From a virus: a stretch of DNA of 64,000 bases. Location: the IMG/VR virus record IMGVR_UViG_3300045988_167206, positions 108,686-172,685 of that record; one strand, written 5' to 3'. The notes below the pieces were generated by a model that was not told the origin of the DNA, searched no databases, and worked only from the letters and a program-made list of their open reading frames with translations. Of the stretch, positions 12,912 to 63,912 are shown one piece after another. The position numbers were made by a program, and so were the translations under genes. Positions within the stretch are counted from its first letter, which is position 1. The number at the start of each line of letters is the position of its first letter.

Positions 12912-12935
12912 AACAACTCCTCCTTGTATTCGTAA

Positions 12936-13010
12936 TGGATATAGTAGGACTCGAACCTACAAAAGCCTGATCCTAAGTCAGGTGCGTCTGCCAAATTGCG
13001 CCATACATCC
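12936..13010 (-). tRNA. tRNA, anticodon UAG (Leu by anticodon), class I body with short variable loop
   Basis: Hand-folded cloverleaf. Acceptor GGATGTA/TATATCC, T arm GTAGG-TTCGAGT-CCTAC, anticodon arm CCTGA-CUUAGGA-TCAGG, 5-nt variable loop, A73. Confidence 0.8.
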
Positions 13011-13084
13011 AGAGAAGGACAGTAAAGACTGTCCTGTAAAGAAATGTATAATATAAGCAGCAACGCCACTCGTATTATTTAAAT

Positions 13085-14272
13085 TTAATTTAATTTATAT
13101 TTATGTTCGTCAACAATACCATCGGTTTTATCAAATACAAACATTGATGCACCGGCATTAGCTGTTTTTCCAAGAGTCTCACTATATGGATTAAGTCCAA
13201 TTATAGATCGAACACTTATTGCTTCTGAATTTACTCCACCTTCTTCTGAAAATGAAGAGTGCCAATGTCCACTAAATAAATAATCAAATGGTACTTTATA
13301 CATTTTTGATAAAGATTTTAACTTGTCATTTAACTGCTTAGTCTCAAAATGTCCACCAATACAAGTGTGGCAAGCAAGTTGCGAATAAGCTAATCCTGTT
13401 GGATTTTCAATAATAGTGATATTATCATTGCCTTTTAATCTAGCTTTAATTAAGGTAAGCATGGATTTACTCATATCCTCATCCTTAAATGCGTCTTTTG
13501 GCTGCCCAACTAAGCGTAGCTGATTATGATTTGACCTTTTTACCATCTGAAATTTGATAATTACATGTTTACTTAATTCATTGAGCCATTCTGAAATAAA
13601 ATTTGCATACAAAATAGAAGAGTCGATAACTCCATATTTTAGAGTCATAAGCTGTGAATTAGCCCTTAAAATTCCTTCTAAAGCATCACCAAGATCCCAA
13701 ATATGTAAAACCTTAATATCGTCTTTATCAATTTGCTCTACTACTTTATAATATAATTCCCACATTCGTTGCTCAAAAATTTCAGGGCTATATTTATTAA
13801 GTGTATACCCGTAAATATCTTTAATATCAAATTCAACGCCATAATGTGCGTCAGAAATAACTAATAAATAATCTTTACTGGTTACAAAAGGTTTAGTGAT
13901 TATATTTTTAGGTAATGTAACAGGTTTAATTTTTTCAATCGCTTCAACAATTTTTTCCGTAATTAATTCATCACGAGAGTATTCTCGTAACCATTTATTA
14001 AATTCTAATTTTTCACTCTGAAGTTTAATGCGTTCTTTTTTAATAGCTAATTCTTCAGGTAAAGTTGAAATAGAAGAGGATGGGACAATATCCCATCCTG
14101 CATCTACATATTCTAATAATAATTTTGATCCTTTTCGTACAGTATCACGGTGTTCTGTTTCTCCAAGTGCATCTGCTCTAAAATCAGTTATATCTTGCCA
14201 TTCAATTGAAGGATCTATTTGTTTACGCTTAATTAAATCAAGCTGTTGCTGTAAAAATTGATTGTTATCCAT
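13085..14272 (-). CDS. calcineurin-like metallophosphoesterase
   Basis: Ordered motifs SDAHYG (DxH), LGDALEG (GDxxE), SNHNQ (GNH-like), GGH and GHWH. Confidence 0.75.
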   Translation of the reverse strand: MDNNQFLQQQLDLIKRKQIDPSIEWQDITDFRADALGETEHRDTVRKGSKLLLEYVDAGWDIVPSSSISTLPEELAIKKERIKLQSEKLEFNKWLREYSRDELITEKIVEAIEKIKPVTLPKNIITKPFVTSKDYLLVISDAHYGVEFDIKDIYGYTLNKYSPEIFEQRMWELYYKVVEQIDKDDIKVLHIWDLGDALEGILRANSQLMTLKYGVIDSSILYANFISEWLNELSKHVIIKFQMVKRSNHNQLRLVGQPKDAFKDEDMSKSMLTLIKARLKGNDNITIIENPTGLAYSQLACHTCIGGHFETKQLNDKLKSLSKMYKVPFDYLFSGHWHSSFSEEGGVNSEAISVRSIIGLNPYSETLGKTANAGASMFVFDKTDGIVDEHKYKLN

Positions 14273-14280
14273 ATTTCTCC

Positions 14281-14529
14281 TTAAAGTTTCATTCCATCGG
14301 TTGCAGATCCAGAGATTTCATCCAGATCAATAGTTTCTTCTGTTTTAGTAGTAGTAGATAAGTCAAAAGGCATATCTCCATAAGCCTTTTTAAAAATTTC
14401 ATTGATGTCGATAATTTCACCTGTACTATCAACAAGCTGATCATCTACCACATGTAGTCCTTTAAGTTTTCCATCGTATTTTACAGTTTTTTTTAATTCC
14501 ATTATTTTTCTCCTTTTATTCCTTGACAT
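14281..14529 (-). CDS. hypothetical protein
   Basis: 82-aa ORF with a GGAGAA-type SD upstream. Confidence 0.5.
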   Translation of the reverse strand: MSRNKRRKIMELKKTVKYDGKLKGLHVVDDQLVDSTGEIIDINEIFKKAYGDMPFDLSTTTKTEETIDLDEISGSATDGMKL

Positions 14530-14584
14530 ATTGAAATAATCAATATAAAATGTTATTAGTGAAAGTTTACAATAAAATGTCTTA

Positions 14585-15187
14585 TTAAAGAATATCGTCT
14601 AATTCAAGATCCTGGCCAATAATTCCATCGACAATTCCACGTTCTTTAGCTTCTTCAGCAAACATATAATATTCACGATCCTTAATTTCTTCAAGAAATT
14701 CTGCAGTCATATTTGAATGTTCGATCATAAACTTATTCATACGCTCTTCAAGTGTGTCATAGAATTTCTGAATATCTTTTCCTTTATTTGAAGAGCTGAT
14801 GTATCCTGTTTGTCCATCATGATGAAGAACTACGGTTCCCGGGAAACAATATCTTTTATGTCCAGCTGCTAAAATATAACAAGCCATAGAAGCACACCTT
14901 GCAAAACCTATTGTTACAATAGGTGTTTTAGACGTACAGATAGTACCTAATACCTGATAACCACATACGACATCACCGCCGCAGGAATTAATATATATAT
15001 AAATTTTTTTTCGTTTACTAATAGGAATATCTTTATCTTCTTTATTCCATTTCATAATCATAAGACATACATTTTCAATGACATTATCATCGATATCCTC
15101 ATTCAAAATGATTTTACGTTCATTTAAATGTTCTTTTATAATAGCATCATAAATGCAATCATCATCTTTTAATGTAAATAATTCCAT
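14585..15187 (-). CDS. ClpP-family serine protease
   Basis: INSCGGDV...GFARCASMACYILAAG...VLHHDG parallels the ClpP signature INSPGG...AASMG...HQP. Start moved to ATG 15187 (GGAGAA 8 nt upstream); the track start at 15232 has no SD. Confidence 0.7.
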   Translation of the reverse strand: MELFTLKDDDCIYDAIIKEHLNERKIILNEDIDDNVIENVCLMIMKWNKEDKDIPISKRKKIYIYINSCGGDVVCGYQVLGTICTSKTPIVTIGFARCASMACYILAAGHKRYCFPGTVVLHHDGQTGYISSSNKGKDIQKFYDTLEERMNKFMIEHSNMTAEFLEEIKDREYYMFAEEAKERGIVDGIIGQDLELDDIL

Positions 15188-15218
15188 TTTATTTTCTCCA
15201 TGTTTTCCTAAATATATT

Positions 15219-16664
15219 TTATAATGCAACAACCATATCTTTAACAGAAGCGACTACTTTAAATGTTTTATCTTCTTTTGATATGGCATCTTTCAAATCT
15301 TTTTTTAAACTATTTTTTGCTACTTCAGATCCATGTACTAAAATCAATTTTTCTGTATTAATTTTAGATCCATATGTAATAAGTTCATTTCGATTTGCAT
15401 GACTTGAAAATGTTCCAAGCGATATACAATCTGCTTTATTTTCAACACCATCTCCACTGATCTTTATAATTTTGTTTTCCTTATAGTTTTTTATTCTATA
15501 AGACAAATAAGAGTTGTCGGATCCAGTGTATCCACTAAAAATAACCATACTATTTTCATCGCTGAGATATTCATGTAAATAAGATAAAATACGTCCGTTT
15601 GTACAAAATCCAGAACTACTTAATATAATTTTAGGCCGATGATCTTTTACAATTGCCAAAGAGTCTTCTTTTTCACGAATAAAATGAACTTTATTCCATC
15701 CTACAACTTTATTCCATAGTTTTAACTCTTCTTCAGATAAAAGAGTAGAGTATAAGTCACAAATATCACATGATAATATAGAATCAACTATAATATCGTA
15801 ATTAAATGAAATATCATGATAGATATTGTACAAATTAGTAAGAATTTCTTGAGTCCTACTAAAACTAAAGCATGGCATAATAACAGATCCACCACGTTCA
15901 GTTACGGTATCAATCGCAGTTTTTAAATGATCCAAATCGAATTTTCGAGTCTTTTTATTTATTCGTCCTGGTTCTCCATATGTAGATTCCATAATTGTAA
16001 TTTTGTTAAAATCTGTTGGAATTTCTGTATTATGAACATAATGATTTTTGGTATTTAAAGAACCAATATCAGAAGTGTATAAAATAGATTTTGAAACACC
16101 ATTTTGATCTCGAAGCGTAAGCTGAAGCTGTCTAGCTCCAACACAATGACTATTCTCATACCATTTAAAAGAAACAATATCGTCAAGAATATACTGTATA
16201 TGTAACTCATCATATTCAACAATATATTTCAAAGTATTCATAACATCATTTTCTTCATAGATAGGAGAGTAGTTTCGTTTATATTTAAATGATAAGGCGT
16301 TTGCTTCACTAAATAAAATAAAAGCACAGTTATAAAGTAAAGGCTTCATAAGTTGTGCAGTAGCGTGTGAAGCGATAATTTTTCCAGTAAATCCTTCTTT
16401 AACTAATCTTGGTAGCAACCCAATATGATCAACATGAGTATGGCCAACAAACACATAATCAATTTCAGAAGGCTTAAAAGGAAATTTGGCAGAGTTTATA
16501 TTATATGATTCAAGATAATTGTTATTTTGGTAAAGACCGCATTCCAATAAAATCTTTTTTCCATTAAACTTAATATAAATACAACTGCCGGTAACATCGT
16601 TGGCATTTTGTCCAATTAAATAAATGCCATCGTCTTTTTTCTTTTTGCTGATATCCAACACCAA
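15219..16664 (-). CDS. metallo-beta-lactamase fold beta-CASP nuclease (RNase J/CPSF-like)
   Basis: HxHxDH motif (VGHTHVDHIG). Beta-CASP-type FSSHANRNEL and LILVHGSE motifs near the C-terminus. Apparent TTG/GTG start. Confidence 0.8.
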   Translation of the reverse strand: MVLDISKKKKDDGIYLIGQNANDVTGSCIYIKFNGKKILLECGLYQNNNYLESYNINSAKFPFKPSEIDYVFVGHTHVDHIGLLPRLVKEGFTGKIIASHATAQLMKPLLYNCAFILFSEANALSFKYKRNYSPIYEENDVMNTLKYIVEYDELHIQYILDDIVSFKWYENSHCVGARQLQLTLRDQNGVSKSILYTSDIGSLNTKNHYVHNTEIPTDFNKITIMESTYGEPGRINKKTRKFDLDHLKTAIDTVTERGGSVIMPCFSFSRTQEILTNLYNIYHDISFNYDIIVDSILSCDICDLYSTLLSEEELKLWNKVVGWNKVHFIREKEDSLAIVKDHRPKIILSSSGFCTNGRILSYLHEYLSDENSMVIFSGYTGSDNSYLSYRIKNYKENKIIKISGDGVENKADCISLGTFSSHANRNELITYGSKINTEKLILVHGSEVAKNSLKKDLKDAISKEDKTFKVVASVKDMVVAL

Positions 16665-16686
16665 CTTTCAGTATATTTAACATATA

Positions 16687-16899
16687 TTAAAAACGAAAAT
16701 CTTGTTTGTTTTTGCTTTTATAAAGATCAGTCTGGTGTCTGGATTTTCTATAATCATTTAGAAGCTGCACACTTCTATATCGAGTAGTTAACCAGTATTT
16801 CTTTCCTCTACTTTTATGAGTTTTACTTGTAACGTGTACATCGAATCCTCGTCCTTTTGAACGTAGATATTCTGCTTCTTTTGAAGTAATAGTAATCAA
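16687..16899 (-). CDS. hypothetical basic protein
   Basis: 70-aa K/R-rich ORF with an AGTGAGGAA SD upstream. Confidence 0.5.
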   Translation of the reverse strand: MITITSKEAEYLRSKGRGFDVHVTSKTHKSRGKKYWLTTRYRSVQLLNDYRKSRHQTDLYKSKNKQDFRF

Positions 16900-16943
16900 A
16901 TTTATTTCCTCACTTTTAAATTATTTCTCCAATCAGGAGATAA

Positions 16944-17026
16944 TGGGAAGTGATGGAGTTGAACCACCCGAGTCTTTCGACAACAGATTTACAGTCTGCC
17001 CCGCTACCCCTACGGTATAACTTCCC
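16944..17026 (-). tRNA. tRNA-Tyr (GUA)
   Basis: Acceptor GGGAAGT/ACTTCCC, anticodon loop CUGUAAA, long variable arm, T loop TTCAACT. Confidence 0.85.
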
Positions 17027-17174
17027 TTGTTTTCTTTACTTTTTCATCTTGGCTGAGGATTTGTGCCCTCCAACCAAAGATATAGTCTGTGTACTTTAGA
17101 CTGCCATTTACTTTACACTCTAAATGGTCAAAACGTAACCGAGGCTGCTGGCGCGACCAGTGCATGTCAGTTAA

Positions 17175-17246
17175 CACACCCTCAAGGACTCGAACCCTGT
17201 TCTACGGTTTTGGAGACCGTCATAATACCACATATACCAAAGGTGC
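17175..17246 (-). tRNA. tRNA-Trp (CCA)
   Basis: Anticodon arm ACGGT-CUCCAAA-ACCGT, T arm CAGGG-TTCGAGT-CCTTG, acceptor GCACCTT/AGGGTGT (G1-U72 wobble). Confidence 0.8.
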
Positions 17247-17255
17247 AAAAAAATA

Positions 17256-17337
17256 ACGCCGTGCACACGATTCGAACGTGCAAGTCCTTTCAGACCAACA
17301 GTTTTCAAGACTGCTCCCTCACCACCCGGACACACGG
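17256..17337 (-). tRNA. tRNA-Ser (UGA)
   Basis: Acceptor GCCGTGT/GCACGGC, anticodon loop CUUGAAA, long variable arm, T loop TTCGAAT. Confidence 0.85.
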
Positions 17338-17347
17338 CATAATAAAG

Positions 17348-17420
17348 CTGAAATAGAGACTTGAACTCTAAACCTGCTGATTACAAATCAGCTGCTCTGC
17401 CAATTGAGCTATTCCAGCAA
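17348..17420 (-). tRNA. tRNA-Thr (UGU)
   Basis: GCTGGAA-TA-GCTC-AATTGGCA-GAGC; anticodon arm GCTGA-UUUGUAA-TCAGC; T arm TAGAG-TTCAAGT-CTCTA. Confidence 0.9.
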
Positions 17421-17484
17421 AATCCGTCTTTCCGGATTGTCAGACCGAGATACCAGTCATTTACTAATTAAATTTTAAACTTGC

Positions 17485-17513
17485 TTGACAAAAATATCCA
17501 ATAATGGTATTAT
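17485..17513 (+). promoter_or_regulatory. sigma-70-like promoter (TTGACA-17 nt-TATTAT)
   Basis: Consensus -35 TTGACA at 17485-17490, 17-nt spacer, TATTAT at 17508-17513. Faces the opposite way to the surrounding tRNA genes. Confidence 0.65.
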
Positions 17514-17675
17514 CCCATTCGTTAGAGGTCGAGAATCCCAAAAGGATTCATAGGAAGATAGTGCAAACTGGACTCCGTGGTAAACCAAGCAATATACAAC
17601 GGTTATTATACGGCCGCCTTTATGGGCAGATTTTAGCTCATGTGCCTCCAATCGGTAGGAGAGGAGGTTTTTACT

Positions 17676-17756
17676 ATGAATGATTATATTACATATATTA
17701 TTCTAGGACTTGATGCACTCGTATGGGTGCTGAAGGTTATTAAAACATTTTGTTAA
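17676..17756 (+). CDS. 26-aa hydrophobic peptide MNDYITYIILGLDALVWVLKVIKTFC (type I toxin-like)
   Basis: ATG preceded by GGAGAGGAGG. An upstream CCTCC (17645-17649) can pair with the SD. Single predicted TM helix with a basic tail. Own promoter and terminator. Confidence 0.55.
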   Translation: MNDYITYIILGLDALVWVLKVIKTFC

Positions 17757-17816
17757 TTTCTTGTTGTTGAGCTTGGCGGGATAATAATTCCATTATTGGA
17801 TTAATCATAGTAGTAG

Positions 17817-17852
17817 AAGCTGCATCCTGCAGCTTCTTTCTTTGTGTTTTTT
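17817..17852 (+). terminator. rho-independent terminator
   Basis: GAAGCTGCA-tcc-TGCAGCTTC stem followed by TTTCTTTGTGTTTTTT. Confidence 0.8.
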
Positions 17853-17947
17853 GATATGCTCCCAATCTAAAAGACCTGAGGTCTCCCAGGAAGGATTTTC
17901 ACCTTCGAGTTCCCAGCATGGTGGGCGGTAACTGTTCATATCTTTAA

Positions 17948-18032
17948 CGCAAAGCAGAGTATTCGAAACTCAATCCAATAAAGGATCGCATGACTTAGCA
18001 GGTCAGCTCCGTGCCTCACGGATTTACTTTGC
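17948..18032 (-). tRNA. tRNA-Ser (GCU)
   Basis: Acceptor GCAAAGT/GCTTTGC, anticodon loop CUGCUAA, long variable arm (ATCC-TTTATT-GGAT), T loop TTCGAAT. Confidence 0.8.
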
Positions 18033-18100
18033 AATTTTAAAGGAGAGGGAGGATAAAACCTCCCCAGAAAAAAGAAAGAGGTAGTAACTATAACAAATCA

Positions 18101-18129
18101 ACAAAAAAATATTGAGTGTAAAACACTCA
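18101..18129 (-). terminator. rho-independent terminator inside the tRNA array
   Basis: On the minus strand, TGAGTGT-TTT-ACACTCA then ATATTTTTTTG, immediately after the 3' end of tRNA-Leu(UAA). Confidence 0.65.
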
Positions 18130-18215
18130 GTGCTATCTGTGGGACTCGAACCCACACTTCGTGTTTCAGAAACAGGATTTTAAGTCCTGTGCGCCTGCCA
18201 GTTACGCCAAGATAG
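18130..18215 (-). tRNA. tRNA-Leu (UAA)
   Basis: Acceptor GCTATCT/AGATAGC, anticodon arm CAGGA-CUUAAAA-TCCTG, long variable arm, T arm GTGGG-TTCGAGT-CCCAC, A73. Confidence 0.9.
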
Positions 18216-18226
18216 CATTTATTTAT

Positions 18227-18299
18227 AAGCACTATATGAGAGTCGAACTCATATCATCTGATTGGAAGTCAGATATCATGTTCCGTTAAACCAATAGTG
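18227..18299 (-). tRNA. tRNA-Gly (UCC)
   Basis: Acceptor GCACTAT/ATAGTGC, anticodon arm TCTGA-CUUCCAA-TCAGA, T arm ATGAG-TTCGACT-CTCAT. Confidence 0.85.
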
Positions 18300-18454
18300 C
18301 ATCGGCAGGGAAGCGGAATTCTGCCTTCTAATTCTCTTATTACCTACTAAATTATAAAGAGCCATGGTTTTATAAAATTTCGGATCCTCTGTAGAAAGAG
18401 GATAACATTCTTTATAATTACTCATTCTGAGATTATACTTAGTACTTCCCCAAA

Positions 18455-18525
18455 TAGCGGAGGCTGGATTTGAACCAACGTCTCTAGAGCATGAATCTAG
18501 CAAGGAACCGCTCCTCTACTCCGCG
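18455..18525 (-). tRNA. tRNA with CAU anticodon (Met or Ile2-type), C1xU72 mismatch
   Basis: Anticodon arm CTAGA-UUCAUGC-TCTAG, T arm GTTGG-TTCAAAT-CCAGC, acceptor CGCGGAG/CTCCGCT with position 1:72 unpaired. 71 nt. Confidence 0.7.
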
Positions 18526-18704
18526 TTATTCGTATATTTATGGTAGAACTATATCTATGTCGTCTTACAACATACAGCATGTTCACTTATTGCCTACTAA
18601 AGATTTCGTACTTAAACCCGATCAGGAATATAATAAAATCACTCGGTTAACACATGCAATTATATTCCGTGTACCTATCTACACCAAACTTTCAGGCACC
18701 ATAG

Positions 18705-18778
18705 TTGGAATGACGGGATTTGAACCCACAACGTCTTGGTCCCAAACCAAGCGGACTGCCAAGTTGTCCTACATTCCA
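18705..18778 (-). tRNA. tRNA-Pro (UGG)
   Basis: Acceptor TGGAATG/CATTCCA (U1-A72), anticodon arm CTTGG-UUUGGGA-CCAAG, T loop TTCAAAT. Confidence 0.85.
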
Positions 18779-18786
18779 AAATTAAG

Positions 18787-18859
18787 CTCTCCCAGCAGGA
18801 CTCGAACCTGCGACACAACGGTTAACGGCCGTTTGCTCTACCAACTGAGCTATAAGAGA
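18787..18859 (-). tRNA. tRNA-Asn (GUU) with C at position 33
   Basis: TCTCTTA-TA-GCTC-AGTTGGTA-GAGC; anticodon arm AACGG-CCGUUAA-CCGTT; T arm GCAGG-TTCGAGT-CCTGC. Confidence 0.8.
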
Positions 18860-44031: not shown

Positions 44032-44130
44032 GAGATTTTTAGATGGAGTTAAATATATAACAGAGCAGAATTTGATGAAATGACAGAAAGAAATCTTTAA
44101 ACTGATTGAGGGAAAGGAAGGAAATTGATT

Positions 44131-44568
44131 ATGGATATCAATAATTTAACAAAAGAGCAGGCGATTGCAGAACATAGAAAAATGTGGAATTGGATCGCTG
44201 ATAGATTAGAGAATTATAATGATCCTGGTTATGATATTCATATGTATAAAGTGAAATATATAAAAGAAAACTTTCCACATAATGATATTAGACACGATTG
44301 TTTTTGTTGTCATTACGCTGTGCAAGAAAATGATGGTAATGTTTTTACTAATTATTGTATTAACTGTCCACTGATTTGGGGTACGGAAGATAATACAGAT
44401 GAATTCTTCTGTGAGCAAGGCAATCGTGATATTCCATTCGAAGATATGTATTTGTTTGGTGAAGAAGGATATGGATTATGGAATTACGCACAGAGCTTAA
44501 CAAAGAATCATGACTACGATGAAGCTGCTAAGGTCGCAAGGCAGATAGCAAATTTGCCGGAAAGGTGA
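44131..44568 (+). CDS. Cys/His-rich hypothetical protein
   Basis: Track ORF (TTG start at 44125) trimmed to ATG 44131. Contains HDCFCCHY...CINCP...FFCEQG. Confidence 0.65.
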   Translation: MDINNLTKEQAIAEHRKMWNWIADRLENYNDPGYDIHMYKVKYIKENFPHNDIRHDCFCCHYAVQENDGNVFTNYCINCPLIWGTEDNTDEFFCEQGNRDIPFEDMYLFGEEGYGLWNYAQSLTKNHDYDEAAKVARQIANLPER

Positions 44569-44574
44569 TTGATT

Positions 44575-44745
44575 ATGTTTAATACTACAGTACCATTAAG
44601 AATTTATGAAAATGTAAAGAAATACTTTGAAAAACATAATATGTCATATGATGTGCAGGAAATTATTCCGGATTTATTACTTTTATGTATGATCGGTTTA
44701 CGGAAGTGGCTCCTATTATGTTTTATTGATTCGGAAGGGAGATAA
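44575..44745 (+). pseudogene. truncated paralogue of gene 45437..45748
   Basis: 56 codons. The first ~33 aa (VPLRIYENVKKYFEKHNMSYDVQEIIPD) parallel VPVSINNPVYDHVRKYFKENNMPYEVQEIIPN of the 103-aa protein. The rest diverges into low-complexity hydrophobic sequence. Confidence 0.4.
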
Positions 44746-44747: not shown

Positions 44748-45392
44748 ATGAAATTATTGTTGGAAAACATTGCAGATATTCAAGAGATATATGGAACACG
44801 TATTATCTATAACAATGTATCATGTATCAAAAATATTATTAATAAGGATATGTTTAATAAATGTTTGATTTATAGTGAATCCAAAAATCATAAAATCAAA
44901 GGCAATATTAAATGCAGACCAATGAATACAGATTGGAAGACAGAATGTAAAGAAAACATGTTCTGGTTTCAGGACACATTGGAAGACATGAAACAAATGC
45001 ACCCATTTATGGATGACCGTCTGTTTGATCTTCGTCAAAAACTTCTTGATTTTGCTGGGGAAGTTGTCTGTCTTCCTGCTTACGAAGAAGACCTTGACAA
45101 CATCTTGAATTATGGTCAGTTCTGGGTTGGTAACAACGTAAAATTAATGCGTGGTGAACCAAGTCAATGTCATGCAAATTCATGTAATCTCTGGGAACAA
45201 AACAAAAATGCTACACGCATCTGTACCGGATATGCATTATCTGACGATGGAATGTGGCGTCAGCATAGTTGGCTTGTATGGCACAAAGCCCGTTCCAACC
45301 AGATTGTTGAGACAACTGTAAAACGCATTGTTTACTATGGCTTTGTCATGCCTTATGATATGTGTCAGAAATTTGCAGATGACAATTTTTAA
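44748..45392 (+). CDS. hypothetical protein
   Basis: 214-aa ORF with GGAAGGGAG SD. Confidence 0.7.
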   Translation: MKLLLENIADIQEIYGTRIIYNNVSCIKNIINKDMFNKCLIYSESKNHKIKGNIKCRPMNTDWKTECKENMFWFQDTLEDMKQMHPFMDDRLFDLRQKLLDFAGEVVCLPAYEEDLDNILNYGQFWVGNNVKLMRGEPSQCHANSCNLWEQNKNATRICTGYALSDDGMWRQHSWLVWHKARSNQIVETTVKRIVYYGFVMPYDMCQKFADDNF

Positions 45393-45436: not shown

Positions 45437-45748
45437 ATGGTTAATATTACTATTGTTCCAGTATCAATTAATAATCCTGTGTATGATCATGTAAGGAAAT
45501 ATTTCAAGGAAAATAATATGCCTTACGAAGTACAGGAAATTATTCCAAATGGAAGCCCATTTAATCATAATCTTTATATTGTGATTGCAAAACATACTAA
45601 TTATCCAGAGATCAAAAAATCGTACGGTGGTGGTCCATGGGTTGTCTGGAGCAGCTGGAATGAAAGCACACAGTGCTTAAATCACGGCCATTACGATATA
45701 GTGGATTATGATAAGGCATACGCACTTGCGATGGAATTAAGAGCGTAA
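45437..45748 (+). CDS. hypothetical protein
   Basis: 103-aa ORF. Confidence 0.6.
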   Translation: MVNITIVPVSINNPVYDHVRKYFKENNMPYEVQEIIPNGSPFNHNLYIVIAKHTNYPEIKKSYGGGPWVVWSSWNESTQCLNHGHYDIVDYDKAYALAMELRA

Positions 45749-55453: not shown

Positions 55454-55738
55454 ATGACATTAAAAGAATTATTTAAACAAGGAAAACTTCAGCTTGAAGT
55501 TGGACCTATAAAAAAATATTCTGCGGTTGATATTGATTTTCTTACAAATGACGGAGTAGAAGATGAGATTCAGTTAAATGTAGAAAATAATATTCTTACA
55601 AAAGCGGGAGAAGAGGAATTAGAGGAGTTGTTTGCTTCTCTTACAAAAGAATTTAACACTCGAAGTGATTTTGTTCTTTCTTGCACGGTAGTTGCAACAG
55701 CAAATACATATAAAAAATTAGTTGAAATGGGATATTGA
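55454..55738 (+). CDS. hypothetical protein
   Basis: 94-aa ORF directly upstream of the RT gene. Confidence 0.55.
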   Translation: MTLKELFKQGKLQLEVGPIKKYSAVDIDFLTNDGVEDEIQLNVENNILTKAGEEELEELFASLTKEFNTRSDFVLSCTVVATANTYKKLVEMGY

Positions 55739-55747
55739 GGTGGTCAA

Positions 55748-57013
55748 ATGAAAGATTATTTATTAGAGAAATTCTTTGAATCAGACCGATGGGAGAATGC
55801 TATTGAAACAGGAGTTATTAAGGGAATTGATAAATCAGAATTAAGAAAGCTTTGTAGTCCAGAGTATAGATTAACATTATTGAATGCAATCGTTACTAAT
55901 AATTACGAGATAGCTCCTCCACATCAGGCATTGATTCCAAAAGATAATGGAGAATTTAGAACAGTTTATGTTAATGAAGGAATGGACAGAGTGTTCTTAT
56001 CTATTGTAAATGATATGTTATTTGAACTTGATCATGACTCTATTCATCCAGCATGTAAAAGTTATCAGAAAGGAATTGGCTGCGGAAAAGTAGTTCAGGA
56101 AGCTGTTAGAAATATAAAACATATTCAAAGACAAGATATTGGATTTAAGGCAGACTTAAGTAAATACTTTGATTCGGTTCCGATTAAGTTTATCGAAAAA
56201 GAATTTAAGCGGATCGAAGAAAGATTTGGAAGATCAAAAATAATTGATGTATTAAGGAAATATTATCATGCAGATTTATGTTTTAATCCAGACGGAAATC
56301 TTATCGAACATTATCAAAGTCTTAAGCAGGGTTGTGCCGTTGCAAGTTATCTGGCTGATTGTGTGTTGTTTCACATTGATAAAAGATTAAATATCATGTG
56401 CGATGGATATTATGTTAGATATTCTGATGATATTCTATTTATTGGTGATGATTATGCATCGGCAATGGCTGCGCTTAAAGACGAATTAGAGAAAATGCAA
56501 ATGAAATTAAATCCAAAAAAGGTAGAATTGCTTGATAAAGATCATTGGTTCAAGTTTTTAGGATTCATGATTAAAGGTGATCAGATCAGTTTATCCAAGA
56601 GTAGAGTCAAAGACTTCCAAAAAGAAATAGAAGCAAGAACAATTAAAAAGAGAGATACAACTAAAACAAAAGCTATAAATAGTGTGAATAGATATCTTTA
56701 CAAAGGTGATGGAAAGTATTCCTGGGCAACTTCAGTATTGCCGATAATTACCGTGCAGAAAGATATTGATACACTGAATGAATTTGTTATGGATTGTATT
56801 AGGGCGGCAGAAACAGGAAAGAAAAAAGTAGGTGGTTTAGGATGTGTTGTAGATAAGGATAATTATACGATTCTTAGAGGAACCGGAAAAAATGTAAAAG
56901 CAAATAAAATTAAAACAGAAAAATATATTGAAGGATATAAGAGTATACGATGTATGCAGAATGCATTGAATTACAGCAGGCCGTTGTATGAAACATTAGT
57001 GAGGGAGATGTGA
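55748..57013 (+). CDS. reverse transcriptase (stand-alone, group-II-intron-like palm/fingers plus thumb-like C-terminus)
   Basis: RT motifs in order: IPKDNGEFRTV (1), SYQKGIG (2), FKADLSKYFDSVP (3), SLKQGCAVASYLADCVL (4), YVRYSDDILFIG (5, YxDD), LNPKKVELL (6), FKFLGFMI (7). Confidence 0.9.
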   Translation: MKDYLLEKFFESDRWENAIETGVIKGIDKSELRKLCSPEYRLTLLNAIVTNNYEIAPPHQALIPKDNGEFRTVYVNEGMDRVFLSIVNDMLFELDHDSIHPACKSYQKGIGCGKVVQEAVRNIKHIQRQDIGFKADLSKYFDSVPIKFIEKEFKRIEERFGRSKIIDVLRKYYHADLCFNPDGNLIEHYQSLKQGCAVASYLADCVLFHIDKRLNIMCDGYYVRYSDDILFIGDDYASAMAALKDELEKMQMKLNPKKVELLDKDHWFKFLGFMIKGDQISLSKSRVKDFQKEIEARTIKKRDTTKTKAINSVNRYLYKGDGKYSWATSVLPIITVQKDIDTLNEFVMDCIRAAETGKKKVGGLGCVVDKDNYTILRGTGKNVKANKIKTEKYIEGYKSIRCMQNALNYSRPLYETLVREM

Positions 57014-57015
57014 TT

Positions 57016-57372
57016 ATGTATATTGTACCAAGGATAGAAGTAAGAGAAGTAGAAGATATTATTGATTTTGCTACAACAATGGATTCAGATATGAACTTAT
57101 ACTTTGAAGAGAAAAATGAATTATTGGAAGATGTTCCGAAACGTAAAAATGATTGTGGAGCTGTATTTTATCCGGCTGTTATTAATCCTCGATTATTTTA
57201 CGCCTACATTTTAAAAAGACAGTGTTTTCGGGATGGTACATATCGGTGGAATTTATGTATTTCATGTAGGGAAGATGAAGATTGTTGTATGGTATTAGAA
57301 ACTATGAAAGGTACTGAAGAAGAAGCAAAAGAACGACTTTCAATAATTCTTACTTCCGGAAGTATTAGATGA
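57016..57372 (+). CDS. hypothetical Cys-rich protein
   Basis: Track ORF (GTG start at 57010) trimmed to ATG 57016 (GAGGGAG upstream). Overlaps or abuts the RT stop. Confidence 0.6.
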   Translation: MYIVPRIEVREVEDIIDFATTMDSDMNLYFEEKNELLEDVPKRKNDCGAVFYPAVINPRLFYAYILKRQCFRDGTYRWNLCISCREDEDCCMVLETMKGTEEEAKERLSIILTSGSIR

Positions 57373-57381
57373 GGTGATCAT

Positions 57382-58014
57382 ATGAGAGAATATTTATTTT
57401 TATATAGAATTAAAAATTCTGATGATCGCGATTGCTGTGCATATATTAATGCAGCCGGTCCAAAATTTGAATGTAATCATTATTTTGGATCTATTACATT
57501 GCGTGGTAGCTGCTATTCTGGTAAAGAGTTTCCCGAATATAAAGAAATCGAAACGTTTCTTACAAAAGATGAATATGAAGAGATTCTTACATTTAATATA
57601 TTTATTAAATCGCTGGGATATGGTATTACCAAGGGAGATAGTAAATACAAAGCAGGCATTAAACTTATTGATTCCATTAAACATATCTATGACAAGTTAA
57701 AGTCTGATGAGGCGTTTGCTTTCTTTGAAGATATTCAGAATAGTGAAATGGAATATTTAAAAGAAGAATACAATTTATCAGATCGTGATATTAAAAAAAT
57801 ACTTAATGAATATACAGAAGACTTTAGAGATCGCAGTATTGTAAGTTATGTATATGATGATAGTGAAGAAGCTGGACGCGAAGAAGCTTGGCAGTTAGGA
57901 TATGATTCAATTTCTTCTAAACATTTTGGCTATAAGAAATTCGGAGAGAATTTAGTTAAAAATGATTATTTTATGAAATTATGTGATGGAAGAGTTGTGA
58001 GATTAAATTATTAA
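57382..58014 (+). CDS. hypothetical protein
   Basis: 210-aa ORF with GAGGTGA SD. Confidence 0.7.
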   Translation: MREYLFLYRIKNSDDRDCCAYINAAGPKFECNHYFGSITLRGSCYSGKEFPEYKEIETFLTKDEYEEILTFNIFIKSLGYGITKGDSKYKAGIKLIDSIKHIYDKLKSDEAFAFFEDIQNSEMEYLKEEYNLSDRDIKKILNEYTEDFRDRSIVSYVYDDSEEAGREEAWQLGYDSISSKHFGYKKFGENLVKNDYFMKLCDGRVVRLNY

Positions 58015-58033
58015 TGAGAATTGAGGTGTAATT

Positions 58034-58615
58034 ATGGGCTGGACTTCTTATCATGCAGAATTTTATAAAAACGGAACTGTTGATCGGAAAAAAGAAGTTG
58101 ATAAACTATGGACCCAGCAAGAAAGTGAAAAATATCCTGAGTTAAATGTATTGAAATCAAGAATGGTTGGTTCTACATATTATGCAGCAATTGAAGAAAA
58201 AGAAAATGGTGTTACTAAACAGGTATTCGCTGTAGTTGTATTAACATCTATAAATATGAAAGACTATTTTAATTTCTCCTATAAAGACATGTGTGAATCA
58301 GCTGGACCATATCGTTACAATTGTCCTAAAGGAATTCTTGATTTGCTGACAGCAACGGATAATGAATATGCAATAAACTGGAGAAACAAGTGTAGAGAAA
58401 ACATTCAGAAGAAAAAAGAAAAATTAACAAAAGGCACATTACCAATAGGCAGCATAATAAGATTCAAAAAATACAATGGTGAAATTGTAGTATTAGAAAA
58501 AATGCATGCAATGTATCAGTTTAGGAGATCTTGGTGGTATTGTGCAGACTCTAATACATATTTTCCACTTGGTCATATACCGGATGAATTTGAAATTATA
58601 AGAATAGGAGCGTAA
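58034..58615 (+). CDS. hypothetical protein (MGW-start conserved phage family?)
   Basis: 193-aa ORF with GAGGTG SD. The pattern MGWTSYHA...YKDMCESAGPYRYNCPKGILDLL resembles a DUF family from memory. Not verified. Confidence 0.65.
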   Translation: MGWTSYHAEFYKNGTVDRKKEVDKLWTQQESEKYPELNVLKSRMVGSTYYAAIEEKENGVTKQVFAVVVLTSINMKDYFNFSYKDMCESAGPYRYNCPKGILDLLTATDNEYAINWRNKCRENIQKKKEKLTKGTLPIGSIIRFKKYNGEIVVLEKMHAMYQFRRSWWYCADSNTYFPLGHIPDEFEIIRIGA

Positions 58616-58617
58616 TT

Positions 58618-59229
58618 ATGGAATTAAATAAAAAAATTGTAGATGTTATTGAGAATAGTGGATTTAATTATGATGGTGTTGATGAAAACGATGGTTATAG
58701 TGTTAGACTTTATCAAAGTACACCCGCAGGAGAAGATTGGGGTTTAATAATATGGTTTGATGGAAGCGATAATGGTTTTATTTATGCATTTAGAAAATAT
58801 TCTGAATCATTTGATGTAGATAAAGAAGTAGAATTTTGGGTTGAATTAAGAGGAAAAAATGGTATTCCAAGTAGTATCAGAAAAATAACAGAAATATTAA
58901 ATGATGCTGAATGGAAAAAAGAAAAGCTTGGATTGTTACTTAATGATTTAGAAGATATTGATTTTAGAGAAGATAATGTATTAACGGTATTTATATTAGA
59001 TCATGTAGATGATGAAGCAAAACCAATATTATATATGATACCATTAAATAAACAGCTTGAAGTAGAAAAATTAGCAAGATCATTAAAGGTAAATGAGTAC
59101 TATAGTGAATTCGAAGATTTATTAACTGATAATCATATTAAATATGAATGGATGGGAAGCATTTATAGTGCTAAAAATAGACAAGAGAATTGGATTGATG
59201 ACAATATTGCAAGAGTAATAGTTGGATAG
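58618..59229 (+). CDS. hypothetical protein
   Basis: 203-aa ORF abutting the upstream stop. Confidence 0.7.
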   Translation: MELNKKIVDVIENSGFNYDGVDENDGYSVRLYQSTPAGEDWGLIIWFDGSDNGFIYAFRKYSESFDVDKEVEFWVELRGKNGIPSSIRKITEILNDAEWKKEKLGLLLNDLEDIDFREDNVLTVFILDHVDDEAKPILYMIPLNKQLEVEKLARSLKVNEYYSEFEDLLTDNHIKYEWMGSIYSAKNRQENWIDDNIARVIVG

Positions 59230-59263
59230 TGAATAGTTAAATAAAACGCACAGGAGAATAAAT

Positions 59264-59923
59264 ATGGGATTAGATATGTATTTATATAAAGCAGAGAAAC
59301 TTGATGAAAATGTTACATTAGAAGATATTCTTCTACTCAATGATTATTTTGATTGGAAGGAATACGGCCAGAAATATACTTTTGAAAAATGGTGTGGAAA
59401 AGATATTAAAAAGGTTAAGAGAAAACTAATTCCATTATATAAAAATGAATATAAAGAAATGTATTGGGATTGGGACACAGAGCATAAATATTGTCATAGA
59501 TCTTTACTTGAACAGTTAGTATCTTGGAGAAAAGCAAATCAGATTCATAATTGGTTTGTTGAGAATGTGCAGGATGGAAAAGATGATTGCGGTTGTTATG
59601 AAGTAACTAAAGGACAACTTGAAGAACTACTTGATACATGTATAAAAGTGAAAGCAGCTTCGAAATTAGTAAAAGGTAAAGTAAATAATGGTTATACATT
59701 TAAAGATGGAGTTGAAATACCAAATGTAGAAGATGGTAAATATATTGAGGATCCAACAACTGCAATGGAATTACTTCCAGCCCAATCAGGATTTTTCTTT
59801 GGAAGTACAGATTATGATCAGTGGTATATGAGTGATATTGATTATACAATTGAGAAAATTCTTAAGGTATTAAAAACAACAGACTTTGATAAGGAAATTG
59901 TATTCTATAGAAGCTCTTGGTAA
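59264..59923 (+). CDS. hypothetical protein
   Basis: 219-aa ORF with AGGAGAA SD. Confidence 0.7.
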   Translation: MGLDMYLYKAEKLDENVTLEDILLLNDYFDWKEYGQKYTFEKWCGKDIKKVKRKLIPLYKNEYKEMYWDWDTEHKYCHRSLLEQLVSWRKANQIHNWFVENVQDGKDDCGCYEVTKGQLEELLDTCIKVKAASKLVKGKVNNGYTFKDGVEIPNVEDGKYIEDPTTAMELLPAQSGFFFGSTDYDQWYMSDIDYTIEKILKVLKTTDFDKEIVFYRSSW

Positions 59924-60702: not shown

Positions 60703-60924
60703 GTGAATAATATTTGGTTATATGGATTTGATGGGTTTAATGGAATTAAAGTAGTTGGTTTTGTCGTAGCAAATAACGAAGATGAAGCATACAGCAAAAT
60801 TATTGAAATGTATAACGATTTTGGAACTGATGAATATAATTTAGAAGATCTGGTTGTTTGGCTTCCTAAAAATGATGACAATTATAGAGAGGATTATCCA
60901 GATGTGATGGAAATTATTTATTAA
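60703..60924 (+). CDS. hypothetical protein (GTG start)
   Basis: 73-aa ORF with TGGAGGG SD 9 nt upstream of GTG. Confidence 0.5.
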   Translation: MNNIWLYGFDGFNGIKVVGFVVANNEDEAYSKIIEMYNDFGTDEYNLEDLVVWLPKNDDNYREDYPDVMEIIY

Positions 60925-60985
60925 ACAAATAATGTAAATATTAAAAGAGCACACTTAAAATATACAATGTCAACATAATTTAATA

Positions 60986-61107
60986 ATGCTGCTGAACTCC
61001 TGGTATAACCGGCCTTCATCTGGATATCTCCAGCTGCTTTCCGGTCCAACCAGGATTCTGCAGCATCTATATGATACTGTTACAGATATGTGCAAGGTTG
61101 ATGAGTA
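60986..61107 (+). repeat. structured unit U1: 81-nt imperfect hairpin plus conserved 3' box
   Basis: Hairpin at 60986-61066 (ATGCTGC/GCAGCAT, GAA/TTC, TCCTGGT/ACCAGGA, ACCGG/CCGGT, CTGGA-tatc-TCCAG). Followed by CTATATGATACTG-TTACAG-N16-TGAGTA. Confidence 0.6.
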
Positions 61108-61152
61108 TATTTAATGTAATGCCGTAGTGTAACGGAAGGTAAATGAGATATA

Positions 61153-61273
61153 TTCAATTCAATTATGATCCATAATGAGAGAGGAGCTGCTTCAGATATC
61201 TCTGAAGCTGCGCCTCCACATATGGATCATTCTATATGATTCTGTTAAAGAAATGTACCGGAATATATGAGTT
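61153..61273 (+). repeat. structured unit U2: TTCAATT box, 66-nt hairpin, conserved 3' box
   Basis: TTCAATTCAATT. Hairpin at 61165-61230 (ATGATCCATA/TATGGATCAT, GGAGC/GCCTCC, GCTTCAGA-tatc-TCTGAAGC). Followed by TCTATATGATTCTG-TTAAAG-N17-TGAGTT. Confidence 0.6.
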
Positions 61274-61317
61274 TATCTAAAAATAAAGCATAGAATAATG
61301 TATATCAACAAGGTAAT

Positions 61318-61455
61318 TTCAATTCAATAAAGTGAGGCATAAAGCCGCAGGCTATTCATCGCTCCTGAATTATCATTCCGGCGACGATGACTATCTCGGC
61401 GGCCATGCCTCCATTATATGAAACGGTTAAAGAAATATTCCATAATTATTGAGTT
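61318..61455 (+). repeat. structured unit U3: TTCAATT box, 78-nt hairpin, conserved 3' box
   Basis: TTCAATTCAAT. Hairpin at 61334-61411 (GAGGCAT/ATGCCTC, GCCGC/GCGGC, TCATCG/CGATGA, apex ttatc). Followed by ATTATATGAAACGG-TTAAAG-N17-TGAGTT. Confidence 0.6.
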
Positions 61456-61486
61456 GATATAAAAATAACAGAAAGGAAACAATAAT

Positions 61487-61963
61487 ATGTTGACATATTA
61501 CGATAATTTGGTTGATTGGGTAAAATGTGGTCATGCCTATTGTATTAATTTAAGAACTAAAACAATGCAGTTAACATCAAATGAAAAATGTATTGACAAT
61601 GGAAGTTGGTATCCTGATGCTGATTTAATTCATATTGATAGAATTGAGACATGCGAATACAAGAATCTACGTTGCTTGAATATCATCGAAGATCTTTATC
61701 GTGATTACAAATATTCAGTTCCATCTGAAAATAGTGAAAGAACGAAAAGGAGAGATTATTTCAAAGCATTATCTCCGGATGAAATGACAGATAAAGAGTT
61801 GGCAACGGGGATGGATAGAAATATTGCGAAAGCGAAACTTGAGGGATTTATCCTGTGTGCTTCATTGGCAGGATATCTTACTTGGGATGAAAAACTTATG
61901 GGAAAATGGTTTTACCAGGGAAAAGATAAAGATTTGGTGATTTTGAGAGAATGGATGGAATAA
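61487..61963 (+). CDS. hypothetical protein
   Basis: 158-aa ORF, the first gene after hairpin units U1-U3. Confidence 0.65.
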   Translation: MLTYYDNLVDWVKCGHAYCINLRTKTMQLTSNEKCIDNGSWYPDADLIHIDRIETCEYKNLRCLNIIEDLYRDYKYSVPSENSERTKRRDYFKALSPDEMTDKELATGMDRNIAKAKLEGFILCASLAGYLTWDEKLMGKWFYQGKDKDLVILREWME

Positions 61964-62018: not shown

Positions 62019-63224
62019 ATGGCAACGTGGAATATGAATTATCTAGCTAATAGAAATTTTCCAGAATTGTATAAGTATGTAGAAGTTATTCTGAGTGATG
62101 GAACGATTAGAAAAAATATGCTAGTTAAAAGAAAATATGGAATTTATGAATGGCGCGATTATACTTCTTGTTACGTAGTAGGATGGAGATACATTGAAGA
62201 AGATAATAAAGAAAAATCAAATGTAAAGGAGAATAAAACTATGAAGAATAACAACAGAGAGAGCAGAATGGAAACTTTAAATAATGCAGGTATTAACACA
62301 GGTAAATATTTTAGCTTAAGTCTTCCGGAAGGACTTAAGCCTGGAGCAACGATCAACATTACAATTTCAGAAGATGGTATTCCGGTTATTAATACGCCTG
62401 AGAAACCGCAAGAAATTGATGTTGCACTTGAGAATTATAATGATATCTGCAGGAATATTACAAGTAGATATGTTAAAAATACAAAATTACATAGAAGATG
62501 GGTAATGGCACAGATGTTCAGAATGTTGAATTATGAAAGCAGAAATGGAGAACGCTGTGGGTACGATGCATATTTAAATGATATGTATGAATATGATTAT
62601 CAGTTTAAGATGATGCTTGATGAAATCAGAGTTTTAAGTATTCTTCAGGAAAAAGATTACACTGCATTTAATGAAAGATCAATTTTCTTTGATTTTAATA
62701 CAGTCATTGCTACTTGTGAGGATTATTTAAGAAAACTGAAAAAATATGTAGAAAATCTTCCAAAAAAGAAATGTAAAGGTGTTCCATATGTAAGAATTAG
62801 TGGAAATGATGTGTTCGTAAATGATTTATATAAGAAAGTTTATTTTCCGATTGAAGACCGGATCCGTAAAATGAGAATCGCAAAACAGTGTGATGAATTA
62901 TATTGTAATTTAAAATGGTTCATTGTAGATTTTGTAAAGAAATATCGCCTTCCAGATAATACTCCAAAATGTAAAGAGTGGAAAAATGCATTCAAGGGAG
63001 CAGGATCTTATTACACATTAATGAATTTGGTTAAATTCCATGGATGTAATATTTATACCGATCATGGTATTTTAAGTGGTTTAAGAGCTGTAGAATATGT
63101 AAATGATAAAAGTAAAGAATATCATGGAGAATATTATAGATTATTTGCTCTTATGAAAAAGGTTATTGCTGATAATAGATTTGATTTTGGTTTGGCAATG
63201 AAAGAAATTTACGGAAATAAATAA
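62019..63224 (+). CDS. hypothetical protein
   Basis: 401-aa ORF with AAGGAGAA SD. Confidence 0.75.
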   Translation: MATWNMNYLANRNFPELYKYVEVILSDGTIRKNMLVKRKYGIYEWRDYTSCYVVGWRYIEEDNKEKSNVKENKTMKNNNRESRMETLNNAGINTGKYFSLSLPEGLKPGATINITISEDGIPVINTPEKPQEIDVALENYNDICRNITSRYVKNTKLHRRWVMAQMFRMLNYESRNGERCGYDAYLNDMYEYDYQFKMMLDEIRVLSILQEKDYTAFNERSIFFDFNTVIATCEDYLRKLKKYVENLPKKKCKGVPYVRISGNDVFVNDLYKKVYFPIEDRIRKMRIAKQCDELYCNLKWFIVDFVKKYRLPDNTPKCKEWKNAFKGAGSYYTLMNLVKFHGCNIYTDHGILSGLRAVEYVNDKSKEYHGEYYRLFALMKKVIADNRFDFGLAMKEIYGNK

Positions 63225-63238
63225 TTGTAATAATATAC

Positions 63239-63408
63239 TGTGATATATACGCAAATTACACAAGGTGTATATCTTCAATTGTAAGGCACGAATATCATAG
63301 ATGTCAGCCAAATCTTCGGATTAACATCCTACGAAATTGGCCGACATCTATGATTCGATGCCTTCGATATATGAAACATTTACAGTGATATATACGAACG
63401 CATGAGTG
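63239..63408 (+). repeat. structured unit U4: TTCAATT box, 82-nt hairpin, conserved 3' box, flanked by direct repeat GTGATATATACG
   Basis: Hairpin at 63283-63364 (AAGGCA/TGCCTT, CGAAT/ATTCG, TCATAGATGTC/GACATCTATGA, GCCAA/TTGGC). Followed by CGATATATGAAACAT-TTACAG-N17-TGAGTG. GTGATATATACG occurs at 63240 and 63385. Confidence 0.6.
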
Positions 63409-63513
63409 TAATTATCTTCTTTAATTTCCATAATATACCAGCACTTCCAATTAACCAATGGGTGTATAATATATAATATAAAAGGATAGCGAAAATTTGT
63501 TCGATTTTTTATA

Positions 63514-63542
63514 TTGCCAAAATACTTGAACTATGGTATAAC
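63514..63542 (+). promoter_or_regulatory. sigma-70-like promoter (TTGCCA-17-TATAAC with TG extension)
   Basis: TTGCCA at 63514-63519, 17-nt spacer ending in TGG, TATAAC at 63537-63542. 50 nt upstream of ATG 63592. Confidence 0.5.
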
Positions 63543-63591
63543 ATTAATATAAAAACGAACAGATGTTTGCTGATTGGGAGGCTAGAATATA

Positions 63592-63882: not shown

Positions 63883-63912
63883 AGATCGACAATGCGTCGG
63901 TCTTTTTTTTTT
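63883..63912 (+). terminator. rho-independent terminator
   Basis: AGATCGAC-aatgc-GTCGGTCT followed by a 10-nt T run. Confidence 0.85.

Follow-up and report, generated by a model that had tools for sequence, protein, structure and literature searches.

Does a reverse transcriptase (RT) gene that lies among small phage genes, with no retron, diversity-generating retroelement (DGR) or intron beside it, act on its own? The question is raised by a locus of the IMG/VR virus record IMGVR_UViG_3300045988_167206, of which we analysed positions 108,686 to 172,685 (64,000 nucleotides, nt; hereafter the window, whose own coordinates are used throughout). A preliminary description of this DNA had presented a 421-amino-acid (aa) RT as stand-alone and without context, and had mentioned hairpin units 4-6 kb downstream as speculative template RNAs. 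We find it very probable that a gut Lachnospiraceae phage or prophage here carries a UG27 retroelement that is complete but split in its layout. This reading is carried by the family membership of the RT, by the proteins that co-occur with it and by the conserved, covarying architecture of the RNA units. 'Without context' is therefore right for the immediate neighbours and wrong overall, as RNA and protein partners lie 3.9-6.2 kb downstream, and 'stand-alone' has to be given up: what follows the RT is a UG27 small accessory protein (sORF), a large one (bORF) and four non-coding RNA (ncRNA) units. The hairpins that had been suggested as templates are, by motif and architecture, these UG27 units. 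The parts are the following (R1, our covariance model, and the 13 related loci are described below):

55748..57013, + strand: RT open reading frame (ORF), 421 aa, ATG start, contains YYVRYSDD; YSDD active site intact
60938-61114, + strand: ncRNA unit U1; R1 107.6 bits, E=3e-18; motif at 61068; fold z=-4.8
61116-61280, + strand: ncRNA unit U2; R1 89 bits, E=1e-14; motif at 61233; fold z=-5.0
61282-61462, + strand: ncRNA unit U3; R1 130.9 bits, E=2e-22; motif at 61415; fold z=-4.8
61487..61963, + strand: sORF, 158 aa; homologue beside the RT in 13/13 loci
62019..63224, + strand: bORF, 401 aa; homologue in 13/13 loci
63234-63415, + strand: ncRNA unit U4, solitary, after the bORF; R1 97.5 bits, E=3e-16; motif at 63368; fold z=-8.4

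The reverse transcriptase and its class

UG27 was defined by Mestre et al. (2022, NAR, PMC9226505) as a class 2 UG/Abi RT, present mostly in predicted human-gut phages of Bacteroidetes and Firmicutes and associated with two protein clusters lacking an assigned function and with an intergenic structured ncRNA, with no enrichment in defence islands. A recent preprint (Li et al. 2026, bioRxiv, September 2026, 10.64898/2026.09.22.753630) describes the system as RT, sORF, bORF and an array of ~150-nt ncRNA units. According to its authors, the AUC of AUCNNNNNNNUANAG is where cDNA synthesis begins and UUYA the point after which it ends, the central hairpins give rise to cDNA hairpins of 50-100 nt, and all three proteins are required; their Discussion assigns no biological role to UG27.

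The PADLOC profile RT_UG27 matches the RT of the window end to end (residues 1-421 against 1-420 of a 420-position profile, E=5e-209, 692 bits). The second-best PADLOC profile, RT_UG26, gives E=1.4e-36 and 124 bits, the ceiling for all other classes; Drt9 scores 78.5 bits, Drt2 43, and the retron RT profiles 42-66 (best 65.9; Ec107-like 54.9). The RT is 57-59% identical to those of the Alistipes putredinis DSM 17216 and Phocaeicola coprophilus DSM 18228 loci, and its 421 aa and YSDD fall within what characterizes the group (380-450 aa, intact YxDD). The preliminary description was accurate on the ORF and its YVRYSDD motif, as it was on the lack of an endonuclease, maturase or primase extension: in Pfam only RVT_1 is found (residues 63-275, full 205-position profile, E=2e-21). 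Its reading of motif 4 as QGxxxS needs correction to QGxxxxS, the residues being QGCAVAS, of which Q194, G195, C196, A197 and S200 are invariant in alignment A7. Going by the profile matches, the RT is a class 2 UG/Abi enzyme of group UG27, outside introns, retrons and DGRs; the earlier placement in the UG/Abi world was thus sound.

Accessory proteins

Thirteen related loci were fetched, comprising IMG/VR contigs, a Blautia intestinalis contig, metagenome contigs, the Bacteroides phage BS-TP1 and MT835776, and every window ORF at 53.4-63.9 kb was compared with them by tblastn. The RT, the 158-aa ORF and the 401-aa ORF are each present in 13/13 loci, and the latter two are the sole proteins accompanying the RT in all of them. 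Among the 50,697 records of INPHARED, where megablast of the locus gave no match, the three proteins each match the same 2 records exclusively; in both, the order is RT, a gap of 0.9-1.5 kb, the 158-aa homologue and the 401-aa homologue. A scan of GTDB species genomes returned 80 loci with the RT. In most of those with enough flank (~60), the array starts ~130 nt past the RT stop, and most have the sORF 0.5-1.6 kb after the RT, then the bORF. A. putredinis DSM 17216, for instance, has an RT of 432 aa and, past a gap of 1.45 kb, genes of 156 and 347 aa; the GTDB loci also include P. coprophilus DSM 18228, and both species are named in 10.64898/2026.09.22.753630. From the co-occurrence in 13/13 loci and this gene order, seen also in the species named in the preprint, we therefore take 61487..61963 to be the sORF and 62019..63224 the bORF, the homology being to the genes that occupy these positions. 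At 4,477 nt from the RT, the sORF lies within the 20 kb allowed for UG27 systems.

Pfam and PHROG searches gave no match for either protein (they were little informative for most neighbours as well), and the preprint likewise reports UG27 accessory proteins without a Pfam or PHROG match. Only one of 173 sORF homologues has a Pfam domain, a 147-aa match (P0278, PF01693), and there is none among the 120 listed of 1260 bORF homologues. The AlphaFold2 model of the sORF is very confident (predicted local distance difference test, pLDDT, 91.4; predicted template modelling score, pTM, 0.88), and Foldseek found no significant neighbour for it in the PDB (best E=5.2). For the bORF, the model has a small N-terminal beta barrel (62019-62200, residues 1-60, pLDDT 76-89), then a low-confidence linker and a confident helical C-terminal domain (residues ~160-395, pLDDT 80-96); Foldseek against the PDB returned no significant match (best E=0.23). 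Faint Sm/Tudor/RimP-like Foldseek hints for the barrel are mentioned here with no functional inference drawn. The window bORF is 54 aa longer than that of A. putredinis (401 vs 347 aa) by an extra N-terminal region, and matches in Bacteroidota phages begin at query residue 65-83.

The arrayed ncRNA units

UG27 arrays consist of ~135-167-nt units, each a long hairpin interrupted by an asymmetric loop that carries UUYA and AUCNNNNNNNUANAG. The window has 18 matches to ATCN7TANAG, the literal published motif, vs 13.7 expected; this is no enrichment, and an AUG variant was looked for. Four exact copies of TATATGAN5TTANAG (a 13-base motif), each intergenic and + strand, lie within 60925-61486 and 63225-63591, with spacings of 165 and 182 nt within the array. 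They correspond to the published motif with AUG replacing AUC, and UUYAAU and UANAG stand at the published spacing. The four units, three before the sORF and one after the bORF, measure about 165-182 nt. The AUG variant is common to the clade of the window and to L018, L019, L081 and L088, while in L009 the gap between RT and sORF has AUC-N7-UAAAG in five copies spaced by 157-173 nt. Three places that nearly match the motif (42850, 44686 and 49213) are not units, as R1 gives nothing there, and matches at L003 9793, 9961 and 16395 and at window position 60875 were rejected because they lie inside coding sequence.

Each unit opens on its 5′ side with a hairpin, P0, whose 3-4 bp close a loop of 6-7 nt. 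The outer stem P1 (7-9 bp) has a unit-specific sequence, e.g. AAATATAC/GTATATTT, AGGTAAAT/GTTTATCT, TATATCAAC/GTTGATATA and AATTACAC/GTGTAATT. Inside P1 come a second stem, P2, then UUYAAU, a central hairpin whose sequence differs in every unit, and UAUAUGAnnCnnUUAMAG, so that UUYAAU forms the 5′ side and UAUAUGAnnCnnUUAMAG the 3′ side of an asymmetric internal loop. The 3′ strands of P2 and then P1, joined by a conserved UGA/AGA, end the unit.

A separate observation is that the invariant UUYAAU is complementary, in all four units, to an invariant AUUGAG at the P2/P1 3′ junction (e.g. 61323-61328 with 61447-61452). Such a pairing might form an H-type pseudoknot, perhaps the one mentioned in the preprint, or belong to an alternative fold; it gives no covariation signal because both sides are invariant.

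Covariation of the RNA structure

RNAalifold predicted no pairs on the raw MAFFT alignment of the units, because the central hairpins differ in length and sequence; unit boundaries were then redefined and the structure was named as four stems (P0, P1, P2 and the base of P3) on an alignment of 32 units from nine loci. The named structure is 67.9% paired, compared with 51.1±1.2% in shuffles, and its covariation score is 0.397, compared with 0.170±0.013 (0/500 shuffles reach 0.397). When the partners are slid by 1-3 columns the score is 0.10-0.18. In the model-fitted alignment, P1 and P2 are 84.5% paired, with double-sided changes in 15/16 pairs, figures to be read knowing that re-alignment to the model leans towards the structure.

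Run over the whole 64-kb window with filters off, R1 finds the four units at 89-131 bits, and its next best match scores 14.8 bits. Units in the arrays of A. putredinis and P. coprophilus are picked up by R1 as well (E 1e-7 to 7e-5). The units fold as long interrupted hairpins with z=-2.9 to -10.8 (40 shuffles each), scores that are somewhat generous as the shuffles were mononucleotide. Two limits apply to finer readings: minimum free energy folding with long flanks often mis-pairs adjacent units, and pairwise local alignments to distant loci are too unreliable for counting compensatory changes in the central hairpins. Rfam, which is without a family for these units, matches only tRNAs in the window and gives nothing credible in the locus even at E<=1, be it intron, retron or other RNA.

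In phage BS-TP1, the UG27 RT (L008 6001-7263, PQ571274.1, gp79) is labelled 'tail protein' in GenBank, and the 1.35-kb 'empty' gap downstream of it holds ncRNA units that R1 detects weakly.

Genes between the RT and the array

No non-coding gap adjoins the RT, which is tightly packed among flanking ORFs (55454..55738, 57010/57016..57372, 57382.., 58034.., 58618.. and 59264..), as the preliminary description had it. From the RT stop to U1 there are 3.9 kb and eight ORFs, which together with the flanks are distributed as follows among the 13 loci:

55454..55738, + strand: 94-aa ORF; homologue in the same position in 6/13 loci, plus one elsewhere in L012
57010..60924, + strand: inserted lineage-variable gene block of 120, 210, 193 (DUF6927), 203, 219, 74 (uncertain), 87 and 73 aa
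120-aa ORF: homologue in 3/13 loci
210-aa ORF: homologue in 2/13 loci
193-aa ORF: homologue in 7/13 loci
203-aa ORF: homologue in 7/13 loci
219-aa ORF: homologue in 1/13 loci
74-aa ORF: homologue in 4/13 loci, at 37-38% identity only
87-aa ORF: homologue in 0/13 loci
73-aa ORF: homologue in 8/13 loci
91-aa ORF (after U4): homologue in 10/13 loci

For the four inserted ORFs common to the window and its closest relative, L014, the ratio of non-synonymous to synonymous substitution rates (dN/dS) is 0.09-0.34. Judged by this and by their distribution, the ORFs that abut the RT are lineage-variable cargo under purifying selection and not parts of the system. The segment 59229-60688 (the 219-aa, the uncertain 74-aa and the 87-aa ORFs) is replaced in L014 (6832-8668) by a P22-type antirepressor and two other genes, and the 153-aa and 94-aa ORFs upstream of the RT are absent from L014. 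The spacer between RT and array looks like an insertion hotspot.

Most other UG27 loci, chiefly from Bacteroidota, have no genes between RT and array. The split layout is typical only of the Lachnospiraceae lineage of the window (L001, L003, L004, L006, L010-L014 and L016), where the RT-to-sORF distance is 2.4-5.0 kb. RT, units, sORF and bORF are all co-directional on the + strand, and a simple scan found no + strand intrinsic terminator between RT and array. A strong hairpin with a T10 run was seen by eye at 63884-63912, after the 91-aa ORF. At ~63488-63545, after U4, a short conserved hairpin with a T-run is followed by a conserved promoter-like TTGCCA...TGgTATAAC; this element and the 63884-63912 hairpin suggest places where transcription units end and restart.

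As to the 94-aa ORF (55454-55738), we observed that its similarity to a 313-aa ProQ_C-like gene at the B. intestinalis locus (L006 9050-9991) is confined to the C-terminal 83 aa of the latter.

Histories of the modules

Comparison with L014 gave the following identities:

RT gene: 83% nt (86% aa)
U1-U3: 99-100% nt
sORF: 99% aa
bORF: 96% aa
U4: 78% nt

On these figures, the RT gene and the array/sORF/bORF module have different histories and recombine independently. The low value of U4 goes with a central hairpin that is wholly replaced, with flanks, stems and motifs kept; this hairpin is different in each of the window, L014, L010, L006 and L001, again with conserved flanks. The hairpin of U4 turns over much faster than those of the other units.

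Alternative explanations

Three other ways of accounting for the RT have to be considered. The preliminary description invites the idea that it works with its immediate neighbours (the 94, 120, 210, 193, 203 and 219-aa ORFs) as effectors and has no dedicated template RNA. Translational packing without an adjacent gap would agree with this, and so would the four ORFs shared with L014, which are real genes under purifying selection. However, the neighbours occur in only 1-7 of the 13 related loci, against 13/13 for both sORF and bORF, so they fail as the conserved partners for which a check in related phages had been proposed; most other UG27 loci have no genes in this position at all, and a ~90%-identical relative has a different cassette in place of part of the block. 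Moreover, when the RT and its six immediate neighbours were run through PADLOC, the RT alone was matched and no neighbour fell into a defence family. We consider this explanation very unlikely. Scarcely more credit is due to the idea that cargo insertion has uncoupled the RT from its array and left a decaying, orphaned enzyme in a system that is non-functional here. The 3.9-kb separation is indeed atypical for the family and the RT differs from the array module in its identity to L014, but the enzyme has its full length, an intact YSDD and a dN/dS of 0.12 relative to L014, no intrinsic terminator was found between RT and array, and the split layout is conserved across the whole lineage (2.4-5.0 kb), which argues that the system works.

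That the RT belongs to another known retroelement, i.e. a retron, a DGR, a group II intron or a defence-associated RT such as DRT2 or DRT9, is the most improbable of the three, to the point of being negligible. Its profile similarity to many RT classes (Drt9 and retron profiles among them) is weak, and 692 bits for RT_UG27 stand against at most 124 for every other class; the RT lacks a maturase or endonuclease domain, Rfam yields no intron, retron or other RNA at the locus even at E<=1, and UG27 is without defence-island enrichment (Mestre et al. 2022, PMC9226505). A retron was rejected for want of an msr/msd gap beside the RT and of an Rfam retron match, the best retron-type RT profile being the 65.9-bit one; a DGR, because no direct repeat of at least 45 nt resembling template and variable repeats exists in the 64 kb and motif 4 is QGCAVAS; a group II intron, because Rfam gives no intron match at the gathering threshold or at E<=1 and RVT_1 stands alone in Pfam. 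Flanking intron RNA domains (together with a position among group II intron RTs) and DGR repeats were the two findings which, according to the preliminary description, would have overturned its placement of the RT, and neither turned up in the window.

Comparison with known systems

The UG27 assignment is also borne out by side-by-side comparison. With other UG27 systems the locus shares the RT profile, the RT length and YSDD; an sORF and a bORF homologous to A. putredinis and P. coprophilus genes; arrayed long interrupted hairpins with UUYA on the 5′ side, AUSN7UANAG on the 3′ side and central hairpins that vary in sequence; a further unit in an intergenic region nearby; and a gut Bacillota phage context with integrases in relatives. 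It departs from them in having ~3.9 kb and eight ORFs, rather than ~130 nt, between RT and array, in the use of AUG for AUC and in a bORF of 401 aa rather than the 347 aa of A. putredinis. The element is thus of a known kind, UG27, with minor variation in architecture and motif.

Like DRT2/UG2 and DRT9/UG28, it combines a single-domain class 2 RT with a nearby structured ncRNA as dedicated template. Those two are host defence systems that make long or concatemeric products (10.64898/2026.09.22.753630), whereas the products of UG27 are short hairpin cDNAs templated by many units, two accessory proteins are required, and the systems are carried by phages and not linked to defence islands. The likeness to retrons is that an RT and a structured ncRNA yield a short hairpin-forming single-stranded DNA (ssDNA), and the protocol of 10.64898/2026.09.22.753630 for ssDNA also recovered the multicopy single-stranded DNA (msDNA) of Ec86. 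Unlike retrons, the locus has no msr/msd beside an RT that itself falls outside the retron clade, and UG27 systems have multiple tandem template units and two obligatory accessory proteins.

Proposed mechanism and possible role

By homology with the UG27 systems of the preprint, RT, sORF and bORF would act together, and one long co-directional transcript would cover RT and array. The RT would start cDNA at AUG, in place of the AUC of the published AUCN7UANAG, copy the central hairpin and stop after UUYA, the outcome being four different ssDNA hairpins of ~80-100 nt. Assuming the published boundaries, i.e. from UUYA to AUG, the predicted templates are:

U1, 60979-61073 (UUUAAU ... AUG): 95 nt; DNA hairpin -25.8 kcal/mol
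U2, 61153/61158-61238: 81-86 nt
U3, 61318/61323-61420: 98-103 nt
U4, 63274-63373: 100 nt

The cDNAs predicted from these 81-103-nt templates fold as DNA hairpins of -21 to -28 kcal/mol.

Several points weigh against the reading of the locus as a complete UG27 system and against this model. The locus is known from sequence analysis alone, so that cDNA synthesis in it is inferred, and the mechanistic model comes from one unreviewed preprint, 10.64898/2026.09.22.753630. The start motif differs here, being AUG and not AUC. Other genes, 3.9 kb of them, part the RT from the array, and co-transcription and stoichiometry are therefore assumed; the histories of RT and module differ, and compatibility between RT and RNA is thus deduced from the conserved motifs only. 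As regards a role, no sequence elsewhere in the window matches the predicted cDNAs over more than 15 nt; the preprint likewise found no cDNA matches, genome-wide.

If the locus is nevertheless taken as a complete UG27 element, the fast turnover of its U4 hairpin and the cargo hotspot in its spacer are leads to the function of the cDNA hairpins, a matter that this locus by itself does not advance. The counter-defence or replication role put forward in the preliminary description stays a suggestion; no function is assigned to UG27 in the literature. Our own best guess, a low-confidence one, would make the ssDNA hairpins the effectors of a conflict between phage and host or between phages. Replacement of the U4 central hairpin between otherwise ~90%-identical phages would fit such a role. 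Replacement in U4 with U1-U3 kept could be a cassette-like reprogramming under conflict. The more specific idea that the hairpins form a phage-encoded, exchangeable repertoire of ssDNA effectors, e.g. decoys or ligands for proteins of the host or of rival phages, is a speculation that we would ourselves call rather unlikely. Equally speculative is a functional tie between the UG27 system and the accessory (moron or anti-defence) genes that have been inserted into the spacer in this lineage.

For annotation, the lesson is that a seemingly isolated prokaryotic RT may be one component of a larger retroelement, with template RNAs and helper proteins several kb off, behind unrelated genes. As read here, the UG27 RT would tolerate physical separation from its array, and its initiation triplet could be AUG as well as AUC.

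Host and lifestyle

UG27 systems belong to phages or prophages of gut Bacteroidota and Bacillota, and so do the relatives of the window: homologues with a named source are from contigs of Blautia intestinalis, Eubacterium ventriosum and Ruminococcus sp., others from IMG/VR contigs of 114-177 kb. In B. intestinalis (L006), the locus adjoins an integrase gene on a 313-kb bacterial contig. L014 has a tyrosine integrase ~6 kb beyond the bORF, a position whose equivalent falls past the window end; there is no integrase among the window ORFs tested. A temperate lifestyle appears more likely than a virulent one because close relatives carry integrases or sit in a bacterial contig, and the earlier impression of a 'virulent-looking' phage finds no support.

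Other features of the window

Several features away from the UG27 locus were noted. Ten tRNA genes (Leu x2, Tyr, Trp, Ser, Thr, Gly, Met, Pro, Asn) lie at 12935-18859 on the - strand, and beside this cluster there is a beta-CASP/metallo-beta-lactamase RNase-like ORF (15219..16664, - strand). An AT-rich box, TAAAGTAAAATTTAA, is repeated at 36124, 38783 and 49625 on the + strand, each time just upstream of an ORF, and may be a phage promoter or regulatory motif. A 65-nt direct repeat, 78% identical, occupies 44605-44669 and 45482-45546; its first copy is intergenic (between ORFs 44125..44568 and 44748..45392) and its second is inside a 103-aa ORF, 45437..45748. At ~28400, a divergent strand switch coincides with a change in the sign of the GC skew: left of it are large - strand genes without Pfam matches, and right of it many small + strand genes, including those for DUF932, DUF2786/DUF7168 and a helix-turn-helix (HTH) protein.

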